A stretch of 9,150 bases of DNA from Escherichia coli (GTDB lineage Bacteria; Pseudomonadota; Gammaproteobacteria; Enterobacterales; Enterobacteriaceae): the NCBI RefSeq assembly GCF_003334255.1, contig NZ_QOWU01000091.1; one strand, written 5' to 3'. Both the position numbers and the translations under genes were made by a program. This document shows, piece after piece, positions 8,212-9,073 of this stretch (position 1 is its first letter; each line of letters starts with the position of its first letter). Under the pieces are notes generated by a model that saw only the letters and a program-made list of their open reading frames with translations, searched no databases and was not told the DNA's origin.

Positions 8212-8341
8212 TTTATAGTCCTTACTTTATAAAACTCACAGGAAGAGGAAATTATGTAAATGCTGAGGGTACAGAAACGTCGTACCACGGCATTAATAAA
8301 AGAGATAACCAGCAGTACAGACAACCTGTTAAAACTGTTTT

Positions 8342-8372
8342 GTATTACCTCATTACAGCAATGAGGTAATAC
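8342..8372. repeat. Perfect 13-bp inverted repeat with 5-nt loop (GTATTACCTCATT-ACAGC-AATGAGGTAATAC)
   Basis: Direct inspection; the arms are exact reverse complements. It lies ~130 bp upstream of the HUH gene start in the AT-rich tract. No U-tract follows on either strand. Confidence 0.8.
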
Positions 8373-9073
8373 TTCAGAATACAGTGAGACTCTCTTAAAC
8401 AGAGGACCAGTACGAATTACAAAGGTAAAAACACACCTCATAGAATTGAGTTTAAGGAAGTACCATTCAATCACTTACAGGAAGTAATCTGACATTCACA
8501 CAAGTCAGTATCGGGTAGCTACAGGCAACACCGCTATTGATACCCCACACACCATAAGAAGATTATTTCATACAGAAAAGATTATATTTACCCATACTTA
8601 TAAACTGTAACGGCACTATAACGTACGAACCAAAGATAATATATCCCTAAAGTGTTCTGGTACGTAACTAGTGTTAAATACGAACCAGACACACACTCAA
8701 TGGATTAACTTTCTCAATATTACGCTATGAGTGAGTGACATAATTTACACATAACTAATCCCCATACACCACCACACTGTAGCATATGGGGATAGACGCA
8801 TTACGCACATACAGAATACTCAGCATAAAGAAGAGTGACATTACGATAGAAAGAGACAACATAACAGATAACATAACCCCCATTAATAATACTAATTAAC
8901 CTAAATTATTTATTGAATACGAAAACAATGAAGGCCCCACCTCACCTCAGACTAAAGCCGACAATATCCTGAGCAACAGGATATCCAATAGTAAATAGTG
9001 GTTACACCAGTTATATTTACTGACTGACCTGTACCAGAGTTTTCTAATACAACGCTGACATGGTAAAGGCATT

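Follow-up and report, generated by a model that had tools for sequence, protein, structure and literature searches.

A conserved 21-nt motif, putatively an origin-like site, in the non-coding spacer upstream of gp2-type genes in int-alpA-yfjI-gp2 islands

In rolling-circle plasmids of the pMV158 and pT181 families, the nick region is conserved across each family, and the Rep-binding repeats are plasmid-specific. Among the CRESS viruses, invariant nonanucleotide origins accompany very divergent Reps. Many Rep nick sites are carried in hairpin loops, yet this feature is not universal among Rep origins. The intergenic region upstream of gene II in the filamentous phages of the Ff group combines plus and minus origins with the packaging signal. 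Origins have also been described in integrative elements, including the Gram-negative PICIs (EcCICFT073 and its relatives), where they lie 3' of the initiator gene (PMC6092414). The genomic islands considered below belong to a class in which genes for AlpA and Gp2-like proteins are both core; such islands carry anti-phage systems in E. coli and its relatives, and those of Pseudomonas are spread by jumbo-phage transduction (bioRxiv 10.1101/2024.08.29.610337). A search of the yfjJ/yagK and DUF3296/Inovirus Gp2 literature found no functional study.

The window analysed here is a 9,150-nt stretch of Escherichia coli DNA that contains, near its right end, an AT-rich tract of 862 nt (Table 1). The composition of the tract (A 334, T 213, C 180, G 135) gives a G+C content of 36.5%, compared to 48.1% in the rest of the window to its left and 44.3% in the adjoining gp2 gene, which bears out the low G+C that the initial annotation had judged by eye. 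Homologous tracts are present in 1584 of 5426 complete E. coli genomes, always as the gap between yfjI and gp2, and measure 820-1054 bp in uninterrupted loci. In seven uninterrupted E. coli loci the tract starts at the stop codon of a YfjI-family (DUF3987) gene and runs to a gene annotated as "inovirus-type Gp2". The backbone runs along one strand in the order integrase, AlpA-type HTH protein, DUF3987 fragment, YfjI-family protein, spacer, Gp2-type protein and variable cargo. The tract is the intergenic spacer of an int-alpA-yfjI-gp2 integrative genomic island, and no annotated feature falls within it in any of 1588 records of homologous tracts.

Table 1. Coordinates of features in and around the spacer (positions in the window; gene-sense refers to the strand of gp2)
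Feature	Position	Strand	Basis
gp2-type gene, 187 aa, predicted HUH Rep-like nuclease, constant partner of the motif	7648..8211	-	structure model
Non-coding spacer between the yfjI-family gene (beyond the window, cut off by the IS) and the gp2-type gene	8212..9073	-	composition, homologous tracts, alignment
gp2-proximal region, putative 5' leader	8212..8540	-	alignable across Escherichia; majority frequency 0.921
CU-rich box, gene-sense TTTCCTCTTCCTGTGAGT, upstream of the gp2 Shine-Dalgarno AAGGA (8219-8223)	8234..8251	-	direct repeat D2
Perfect 13-bp inverted repeat with 5-nt spacer, GTATTACCTCATT / AATGAGGTAATAC	8342..8372	.	repeat search
Variable middle region with insertions, deletions and local duplications	8541..8864	-	majority frequency 0.77
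Two tandem 12-nt units, gene-sense GTTATGTTATCT / GTTATGTTGTCT, 8 nt downstream of the core	8854..8877	-	TRF
Semi-conserved extension: 4-5 variable bases followed by a purine-rich box with GT at its end	8876..8884	-	AATGGGGGT here
Core motif, gene-sense TTTAGGTTAATTAGTATTATT; family consensus TTWAGGTTAATTARTATTATT	8905..8885	-	recurrence across diverged Gp2 lineages
yfjI-proximal end of the spacer, cut short by the IS	8906..9073	-	majority frequency 0.74, least conserved
Left end of IS3-family insertion sequence with start of its first ORF (ATG at 9128; MTKNTRF...)	9074..9150	+	100% matches

The right edge of the tract is set by an insertion. The last bases of the window match a multicopy element annotated as IS3 family transposase, which was found at 22,808 places in 3553 genomes, and alignment to uninterrupted loci puts the insertion point exactly between 9073 and 9074. 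The initial annotation had supposed that this element severed the tract from its original upstream context, and so it did: uninterrupted loci run on for ~54-62 bp to a yfjI-family stop codon, and the IS took away only the last ~54 bp and parted the tract from yfjI. On the other side, downstream of the tract and gp2, other loci carry Zorya, IS66 remnants or a group II intron. The "HUH/helicase module" that had been proposed for the window found no support, since the 796-aa neighbour is an archaeo-eukaryotic primase-polymerase joined to an SF2 helicase (a TOTE conflict-system protein) and is exchangeable cargo; a literature search for 'TOTE conflict system' found no paper. A phage or plasmid origin of the tract was rejected. 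There was no DNA match among 50,697 phage records, which gave only 2 weak protein matches, and the nine 'plasmid' matches are large E. coli records (56 kb to 4.8 Mb) typed as non-mobilizable in PLSDB, several of which are probably chromosomal DNA filed as plasmids (the largest being the one of 4.8 Mb).

The tract does not appear to code for protein. As reported earlier, no ORF of at least 60 aa lies wholly within it; a mechanical 97-aa ORF (8181..8474, minus strand) overlaps it and extends into the gp2 gene, and this frame is intact in 0 of 31 homologous variants. A 34-codon ORF (8260..8364, with GAGGA at 8245) is present and had rightly been called unsupported, being intact in only 2 of the 31 variants, with ATA for ATG in most homologues. 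No ORF of at least 20 aa is intact in more than 60% of the 25-31 variants checked, and small peptide genes were therefore rejected. Indels among the homologues are frequent and their lengths are not multiples of three; that no reading frame is kept argues against the decayed gene that had been offered as one explanation. Taken over the tract in full, small repeats are only marginally in excess. CATTACG does occur twice (8799, 8839), and ACATAAC is repeated as had been noted, though in three copies (8749, 8859, 8871) rather than two; over the whole tract 53 repeated 7-mers compare with 41 +/- 7 in shuffled sequences, and 32 of 500 shuffles reach 53.

One property that the initial annotation did not mention is a strong strand asymmetry, with a plus-strand AT skew of +0.22 to +0.28. 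On the gene-sense strand, the excess of T over A starts or sharpens at the motif described below in two mutually unalignable lineages. Four-fold degenerate sites in unrelated neighbour genes are skewed with the same sign, so the asymmetry is not specific for single-stranded exposure, and it was dropped as evidence for single-stranded DNA.

Most of the spacer evolves near-neutrally, at the pace of gp2 third codon positions. Pairwise identity in the tract is 87-93%, alongside 85-93% at gp2 third positions and 94-98% at yfjI third positions. The gp2-proximal region is 87% identical to that of E. albertii, and its majority frequency (Table 1) is not above the synonymous-site level, which is 0.929 at gp2 third codon positions. 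The middle region has 7% invariant columns among 30 variants and gap fractions of up to 0.6; a CTCAATATTAC unit is triplicated there in one locus (L004), and the long middle part is missing from other lineages. The yfjI-proximal part is common only to loci with yfjI upstream and differs completely in E. albertii, and homology with two loci of other upstream context (L009 and L010) ends at the motif. About 95% of the spacer is unconstrained filler that grows and shrinks by indels and local duplication. A random decayed remnant, which had been named as the finding that would undo any functional interpretation, is thus nearly what the bulk of the tract looks like, at about the synonymous rate of change, but one motif within it is conserved.

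The only strongly constrained part of the spacer is this 21-nt core together with its ~9-nt extension, 8905..8876 on the gene-sense strand. The core is matched once in the window and not at all in 200 shuffles, and elsewhere the purine-rich box of the extension reads TATAGAAGT, AAAAGAAGT or AAATGGAGT. Across diverged lineages the core shows 0-2 mismatches where Gp2 identity has fallen to 64% (L020), 59% (L012), 46% (L013) and 43% (L101), and still 0-2 at ~30% (L064, L082, L108, L133 and L144); variants remain recognisable in four further loci at 36-44% (L014-L017). The sequences flanking it cannot be aligned anywhere among these lineages (Gp2 30-64% identical). A scan of genome contigs used a narrow peptide pattern and gave 10 loci only, and the wider diversity comes from a metagenome scan, where all 43 loci that carry a gp2-like gene have the motif upstream of it and on its strand; that scan took exact DNA-pattern matches only and gives no rate of motif absence. 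The distance to the gene ranges from 151 to 1155 nt, a 7-fold variation that weighs against the origin reading given below. A position weight matrix finds one strong copy per locus (at least 23 of 32.2 bits), and the motifs of L015 and L016 carry a 2-nt deletion and score 6.7 in the ungapped scan. The motif also stays with gp2 in loci that have no yfjI upstream (L009, L012, L014 and L020), and homology between loci of differing upstream context starts at the motif. The gene it accompanies is gp2, not yfjI, and the gp2 module has its 5' edge at the motif. The earlier guess that the tract holds the "promoter or origin of the HUH module" pointed in the right direction, in that one deeply conserved cis element is tied to the HUH-like gp2.

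What might read such a site? The Gp2 protein, in a confident structure model, has a Rep nuclease as its best structural match, and the H-I-H and Y-x-x-K motifs are conserved; it models as an HUH Rep fold. The motif is probably the DNA target of the Gp2-type protein. Beyond this, we favour the reading, at a probability of roughly 0.4, that the motif is where an origin-like element is recognised or nicked, the 12-13-nt repeats alongside it being lineage-specific. The HUH-type Gp2 would act on the motif, which would correspond to the conserved 'nic' locus of a rolling-circle double-strand origin, and the repeats just downstream may correspond to the variable Rep-binding 'bind' locus. From a nick in the gene-sense strand at the motif, displacement synthesis would be primed in one direction across gp2 and the cargo, whether in the excised island or in situ, and the island's YfjI-type helicase/primase may assist. 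Another conserved protein of the island, or a host factor, might equally well be what reads the site.

A whole-tract search for repeats returned just three weak two-copy direct families, and the single tandem pair adjoins the gp2-linked motif; TRF gives it a period of 12, 2 copies and 91% matches, and it is iteron-like and lineage-specific. The 300 nt that follow the motif contain 37 repeated 6-mers, compared to 22.9 +/- 4.7 in shuffles, 0 of 300 of which reach 37. The corresponding position is occupied by 8 x 13 nt of TGTAAnTnnAnCn in L020 and by GGTGGTAT units in L009 and L006. The excess is significant in long-spacer lineages only and is absent in the short ones (L012, L053, L134, L014).

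This arrangement resembles the double-strand origins of pMV158 and pT181 in several respects: a family-wide short sequence adjoins, and is co-oriented with, an HUH Rep-type gene; nearby direct repeats differ by lineage; and an AT-rich non-coding region lies upstream of rep. Of the features that define such an origin, the adjacent HUH Rep gene is found here by structure prediction, and a conserved candidate nick region is found as well. There are also differences. The tract has no conserved inverted repeat at the putative nick site, its setting is not a plasmid but an integrative island in the chromosome, equipped with a tyrosine integrase, and the small Rep-like protein of 187 aa belongs to an uncharacterised subfamily. 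No hairpin around the motif is conserved, with weak A/T stems in some lineages and none in L012, L053 and L013.

Other systems are more distant. Like the Ff phages, the island has long non-coding DNA before a Gp2-type gene and a T-rich gene-sense strand, as in ssDNA phage genomes; unlike them, it has no other inovirus genes and no conserved hairpins, and the f1 gpII nick sequence GTTCTTTAATAGTGG has zero matches in the tract at up to 3 mismatches. The rudivirus terminal motif AATTTAGGAATTTAGGAATTT (PMC7156643) and the present motif with its two preceding bases, AATTTAGGTTAATTAGT, have in common AATTTAGG and a second AATTAG unit. The spacing of these repeats is off by one base, however, and both sequences are AT-rich, so the likeness may be chance; moreover, the rudiviral Rep acts on the hairpin ends of a linear genome, and the protein compared, SIRV1 ORF119 Rep, shares 9% identity with its counterpart here. 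Three further candidates were set aside. The motif contains TAGTATTAT, one base off the CRESS-virus-like nonanucleotide TAGTATTAC, and the tract has five one-mismatch matches when counted against two viral nonanucleotides, which is chance level. A likeness to the SP6 promoter (ATTTAGGT...TATAGAAG) was regarded as coincidence, the halves lying 9 nt further apart and there being no single-subunit RNA polymerase. A dif/XerCD-like site, agreeing by eye at 12-14 of 21-22 bases, was unconvincing.

The main rival to the origin reading, somewhat unlikely in our view, gives the motif a role in transcription: gp2 and the cargo would be controlled from an operator or activator site overlapping a weak or activator-dependent promoter, and a conserved island regulator (the AlpA-type HTH protein, another HTH protein or Gp2 itself) would read it, with the rest of the tract serving as a long untranslated leader. 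The fixed orientation of the motif and its position at the start of the gp2 module fit such a role, as does its near-palindrome AATTAA-GG-TTAATT, along with a -10-like TATTAT followed 7-8 nt later by purines. In short-leader lineages the motif stands 151-220 nt from the ATG and is followed by a Shine-Dalgarno-sequestering hairpin, a typical mRNA leader layout, and a sense strand richer in G than C and in T than A would be expected to make the untranslated leader a poor Rho substrate. AlpA and Gp2-like proteins are, besides, both core to the island class (bioRxiv 10.1101/2024.08.29.610337).

Several observations speak against control of this kind. A sigma-70 promoter would have -35 and -10 hexamers 16-18 bp apart with A2 and T6 of the -10 conserved; a consensus scan found zero sigma-70-like sites on the minus strand of the tract, and their total in the tract is no higher than in shuffles. 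A sigma-70 promoter at the motif was rejected: no -35 is conserved upstream of the internal TATTAT, and in L013, L015, L016 and L017 that hexamer is TGTTAT or CATTGT, without the essential A or T. The 21 contiguous invariant bases exceed what promoters or dimeric HTH operators usually need, and neither int nor alpA has a second copy of the motif nearby, although a regulator of the island could be expected to act on those genes too. Nor is the Pseudomonas precedent transferable: the antiterminator called AlpA in P. aeruginosa is Q-like, uses a GGGACG site (PMC9371919) and has only its name in common with the 70-98-aa HTH protein of these islands. AlpA-type antitermination through a long, terminator-laden leader was rejected on the same account, and the tract has no terminators.

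That the tract instead acts as a replication origin of PICI type for the YfjI-family (primase/helicase-like) protein encoded upstream is quite improbable. The parallels are evident enough, and include the same unidirectional order of int, alpA and a pri/rep-like gene, short direct repeats, and an AT-rich non-coding region directly 3' of the DUF3987/YfjI gene, which is where PICI origins have been described (PMC6092414). The conserved element here is tied to gp2 and not to the pri-rep-like gene, however, and accompanies it to the loci without yfjI named above, and the part adjoining yfjI is the one that is least conserved (0.74) and wholly different in E. albertii. The defining layout of two iteron sets around an AT-rich core is not evident, and the window has no packaging or interference genes. 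P4-type iterons and DnaA boxes are likewise absent: neither P4 type I iterons (TGTTCACC) nor DnaA boxes were found at up to 1 mismatch on both strands of the tract. The cryptic prophage CP4-57 of E. coli K-12 shares the backbone intA, alpA, yfjI and yfjJ followed by defence cargo (abpAB), yet no more than 152 bp, with an A-rich sense strand, separate its yfjI from yfjJ, and the motif is absent. K-12 YfjJ is 26% identical to the Gp2 of the window over only 93 residues.

A functional RNA is more doubtful still, be it a small RNA from one strand or the other or, on the minus strand, a riboregulator or a long leader with structure. Both strands fold better than shuffled sequences (z = -4.9 and -4.7, 20 shuffles each), the strand-asymmetric composition fits transcription, and a CU-rich box and Shine-Dalgarno hairpin are conserved near gp2. 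The stretch 8212..~8260 holds the gp2 ribosome-binding site as well as this box, whose CTTCCTGTRAGT has a second copy at 8473-8484; CTCTTCCTKTGA is also found ahead of gp2 in Edaphovirga, Erwinia-type, Salmonella and L020-type loci, pairing there with a GAGGAAG Shine-Dalgarno. The z-scores are alike on both strands, though, which points to DNA palindromes rather than strand-specific RNA, and sequence conservation is the same as at synonymous sites. RNAalifold, run on 18-25 unique variants, gave 0-1 double-change pairs and 2-12 broken cells per segment and no conserved structure. The best hairpin is not kept, and the 13-bp inverted repeat is lost in several homologues through stem-breaking changes, with only 6 pairs retained in the alifold consensus and zero compensatory changes. 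The covariance models of Rfam 15 gave no hit on either strand of the entire window, even at E<=1, the tract contains no terminator-like or minus-strand promoter-like site, and other lineages do without the long middle part, so that the small RNA suggested by the initial annotation found no support. It is barely credible that the tract provides spacing only, as a decayed gene or as AT-rich junk gained by horizontal transfer, in either case probably bound by H-NS, with the motif recurring by shared ancestry alone: the near-neutral bulk with its heavy indel turnover, the want of annotated features and a low G+C typical of H-NS-silenced DNA all fit, but no reading frame is conserved, and ancestry alone cannot hold 18-21 bases identical at ~30% protein identity amid unalignable surroundings.

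The element has apparently not been described so far. Gp2-type (YagK/YfjJ-like) genes are among the core genes of a very common class of integrative islands, and a cis site for them is absent from the literature that was found. The motif and its spacer explain the blank ~0.6-1.1 kb upstream of gp2 in thousands of genomes, and for genome annotation the motif can serve to mark where the gp2-plus-cargo module begins on its 5' side. Its 21 nt, constant even at ~30% protein identity, also offer a cheap and concrete experimental handle. Should the motif prove to be only an operator, it would be a routine regulatory motif. A bolder form of the origin reading, unlikely on present evidence, is a split rolling-circle system, in which a stand-alone Gp2-type HUH nickase would cut at the invariant site and a separate YfjI/DUF3987 helicase-primase would power strand displacement, the motif and repeats being their origin. 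If that were true, the downstream defence cargo would be amplified or mobilised, in situ or after excision, and the system could account for how the widespread int-alpA-gp2 defence islands replicate and feed phage-mediated transfer.

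The AT-rich spacer upstream of gp2, the gene for an inovirus-type Gp2 protein, covers 862 nt (window 8212..9073) at a G+C content of 36.5% (A 334, T 213, C 180, G 135), lower than the 48% of the remaining window and the 44% of gp2 itself, as had been judged by eye in the initial annotation. No ORF reaching 60 aa lies wholly within it, as described there, and a 97-aa mechanical ORF (8181..8474, minus strand) overlaps it. Among the short repeats then reported, CATTACG does occur twice, and ACATAAC has three copies rather than two; over the whole tract, repeated 7-mers (53 vs 41 +/- 7) are scarcely above chance. 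A strong plus-strand asymmetry (A far above T, C above G) had gone unremarked.

Seven uninterrupted loci share one gene order, all on one strand: tyrosine integrase, AlpA-type HTH, DUF3987 fragment, YfjI-family protein, the tract (820-1054 bp), 'inovirus-type Gp2 protein' and variable cargo. Alignment with these loci places the IS of the window about 54 bp from the yfjI end of the tract, so that, just as suspected, the insertion has parted the tract from its upstream context, here yfjI, with almost nothing deleted. The tract is present in 1584 of 5426 complete E. coli genomes by megablast, almost always single-copy and chromosomal, and nothing is annotated under it across the matching genomes; the only plasmid matches are records several of which are probably mis-filed chromosomal DNA. 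Island sites differ, one island (L001) adjoining a tRNA-Thr gene beside proA and another (L002) lying beside dgcT/pgaA, and the cargo downstream of gp2 varies as well, comprising a TOTE primase-helicase (in the window), Zorya, IS66 remnants or a group II intron. The 796-aa neighbour in the window, an archaeo-eukaryotic PrimPol joined to an SF2 helicase whose homologues RefSeq names 'TOTE conflict system archaeo-eukaryotic primase domain-containing protein', is cargo and not an obligatory partner; in sister islands its slot is taken by Zorya or by other genes. At its 3' end (window 7648..7670, likewise in L001 and L002), gp2 has a recombination breakpoint, with different cargo starting right there. 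After an invariant ...RGRPR, the C-terminus of Gp2 is either HN and stop or a LNSILPGICSQL-type tail, and a terminator-like hairpin with a T-run on the plus strand (7656-7676) overlaps the last gp2 codons. Window 63..4455 is a decayed island remainder. In K-12 CP4-57 the matching yfjI-yfjJ gap is just 152 bp, and YfjJ is related only remotely to the window Gp2 (26% over 93 aa).

Features of the window and of compared loci
Feature	Position	Strand	Remarks
Conserved motif TTWAGGTTAATTARTATTATT	8905..8885	gene-sense (minus)	shared block across distant gp2 loci
Direct repeat, 2 x 12 nt	8854-8877		window
Direct repeat array, about 8 x 13 nt (TGTAAnTnnAnCn)	L020 1562..1665 (also L050, L058)		starts 17 nt after motif
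GGTGGTAT repeat units	L006 and L009		
Perfect 13-bp inverted repeat	8342-8372		
End of multicopy element	9074..9150		annotated IS3 family transposase
796-aa protein	5127..7517	minus	N-terminal PrimPol domain (PADLOC PrimPol, E=1.8e-141) + SF2 helicase domain
Rpn-family recombination-promoting nuclease	3478..4455		
Type I methyltransferase hsdM	2445..3285		two fragments
KamA/EpmB	1979..2287		N-terminal fragment
MurR/RpiR regulator	906..1739		
IS110-family transposase	63..683		fragment

A nine-locus alignment of the tract contains abundant insertions, deletions and local duplications. Pairwise identity is 87-93% in the tract, 85-93% at gp2 third positions and 94-98% at yfjI third positions, and column conservation among 30 variants falls from 0.92 in the proximal 330 nt to 0.77 in the middle and 0.74 in the yfjI-proximal part, with gp2 third positions at 0.929. 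The proposals of a decayed gene or small ORF fail, no ORF being maintained across homologous variants; the 34-codon ORF pointed out at 8260..8364 does exist, and is intact in only 2 of 31. The suggested small RNA fares no better: Rfam gave zero matches at E<=1, RNAalifold on the tract variants found essentially no compensatory change (the 13-bp palindrome is not retained), and the two strands of 8200..8905 fold equally better than dinucleotide shuffles (z about -4.8, 20 shuffles each), an indication of palindromic DNA rather than of a strand-specific RNA. Palindromes are enriched in the tract, the 13-bp one and CTGAC...GTCAG at about 8485-8508 among them, and are not conserved in homologues. 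With a near-synonymous rate, no maintained ORF, no Rfam match or covariation, and no similarity in phage records, the bulk of the tract is unconstrained spacer, and the tract overall is an ordinary, fast-evolving island spacer.

Exactly one block, the 21-nt motif, is common to the tract and the upstream regions of distant gp2 genes, searched in 10 genomes from a protein-pattern scan and in contigs whose encoded proteins are 64-67% identical. The window has a single copy and 200 shuffles have none; there is one strong copy per locus, and 4-5 bases downstream of it follows a purine-rich box, semi-conserved and with GT at its end. A metagenome scan with an 18-nt core returned 120 loci. Of these, 43 have a gene for a Gp2 relative, and each of the 43 genes is preceded on its own strand by the motif, at a distance of 151-1155 nt; this count, coming from loci selected by the exact pattern, gives no frequency of motif absence. 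Of the remaining 77, most are without family-type flanks and have the look of chance hits in AT-rich sequence; eight do have such flanks, on contigs that stop 57-865 nt past the motif. Going by the unbiased, protein-based set, the motif seems to be usual upstream of gp2, since it or a degenerate variant is found in every locus with a full-length gene and sufficient sequence before it (L010, L012-L017); the weakest partial Gp2 match, L019 (30% over 92 residues), has no motif, and in L011 the upstream sequence is too short to judge. Mixta, Atlantibacter, Rouxiella and Escherichia sp. E1V33 carry variants that can still be recognised, and the copy in L015/L016 has an ungapped PWM score of just 6.7 because of a 2-nt deletion. 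A weak second hit in L001 (12411..12431 minus, 15.5 of 32 bits; TGGATTTTTAATATTATT), about 265 nt upstream of the alpA-type gene, resembles the T-rich motif variant of L014/L017 and may be chance in very AT-rich DNA.

The motif belongs to the gp2 module and marks its 5' edge: in all 43 gp2-bearing loci of the metagenome scan it lies upstream of the gene and co-oriented with it, and in L009 and L010, which have a different upstream gene, homology to the window begins at the motif. Motif-bearing loci include Gp2 proteins only about 30-43% identical to known ones (L064, L082, L108, L133, L144, L101), flanked by unalignable DNA of very different base composition. One of these, metagenome contig L108 from a very AT-rich host, carries an exact copy of the motif, placed 184 nt before the ATG of a Gp2 relative with about 31% identity, so that the module reaches well beyond Enterobacterales. 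Its neighbours, from translations alone, are possibly DUF932-like, Rad52/ERF-like, antirestriction-like and Fic-like, and look like typical integrative-element genes.

Gp2 has weak Pfam matches (REP_ORF2-G2P, E=0.001; YagK_YfjJ_C, E=0.016), conserved H-I-H and Y-L-A-K motifs, and a confident structure model (pLDDT 87.6, 17-sequence alignment) whose best structural match is a rudiviral Rep; at the level of the predicted fold, we take it to be HUH Rep-like. Gp2-like genes are listed as core genes of int-alpA islands transduced by a jumbo phage, with no function assigned there (bioRxiv 10.1101/2024.08.29.610337). Rudiviral genome ends carry AATTTAGGAATTTAGGAATTT (PMC7156643), a sequence similar to the motif extended by the two bases before it in the window, AATTTAGGTTAATTAGT. 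Because the two are AT-rich and differ in phasing, this sequence likeness is taken as a lead only.

Long-spacer lineages carry direct repeats immediately after the motif, differing between lineages. Repeated k-mers are significantly in excess there; in short-spacer lineages they are not. The L020-type lineage, with a Gp2 64% identical to that of the window, has a spacer of ~1000-1150 nt unalignable to the tract. In two mutually unalignable lineages, the excess of T over A along the sense strand becomes sharper at the motif; four-fold sites of neighbouring genes have a skew of the same sign, and the asymmetry is therefore not counted as evidence for single-stranded DNA. Rolling-circle double-strand origins of the pMV158 and pT181 families combine a conserved nic locus with a variable bind locus. 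An invariant site, lineage-specific repeats and a Rep-type gene recall that layout, and by this analogy we favour, at a probability of roughly 0.4, a site bound or nicked by Gp2; the motif would be the nic-like conserved locus and the adjacent repeats the bind-like variable locus. Counting against this reading, motif-gp2 spacing is variable and no hairpin around the motif is conserved among the compared lineages, unlike at many Rep nick sites. Rolling-circle plasmid origins and PICI origins are the closest known kinds.

The main rival, which we consider somewhat less probable, is an operator/leader arrangement in which a conserved island regulator reads the motif; such a regulator could account for the same conservation. 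This reading draws some support from the short-leader lineages, where the motif precedes the ATG by 151-220 nt and a CU-rich box before gp2, CTCTTCCTKTG, pairs with the Shine-Dalgarno. The last ~60 nt before gp2 contain a conserved AAAATTAC...CTCTTCCTKTG (L012, L053, L134, L020, L024), and its pairing with GAGGAAG in several genera suggests translational sequestration. The window lineage retains the box (8234-8251), duplicated at 8473-8484, and pairing with AAGGA is weak. Every assembly with the Salmonella Gp2 that is 67% identical (L024-L027, Salmonella and Logan contigs) breaks 150-240 nt upstream of the gene, a hint of repeated or hard-to-assemble spacer.

A PICI-type origin serving YfjI would fit the position of the tract 3' of yfjI (PMC6092414), but the motif is linked to gp2, the two-iteron-set layout is missing from the tract, and the yfjI-proximal part is poorly conserved. 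A sigma-70 promoter at the motif was rejected: there is no -35, TATTAT becomes TGTTAT or CATTGT in four lineages, and a consensus scan of the tract's minus strand found nothing. The Ff intergenic region is a looser likeness, none of its sequence hallmarks being found in the tract.

No description of the motif was found in the open-access literature, and it is apparently an undescribed, extremely conserved cis element tied to a HUH-like core gene. Gp2 and the motif would represent a Rep-type gene with its cis site in a widespread class of defence islands.
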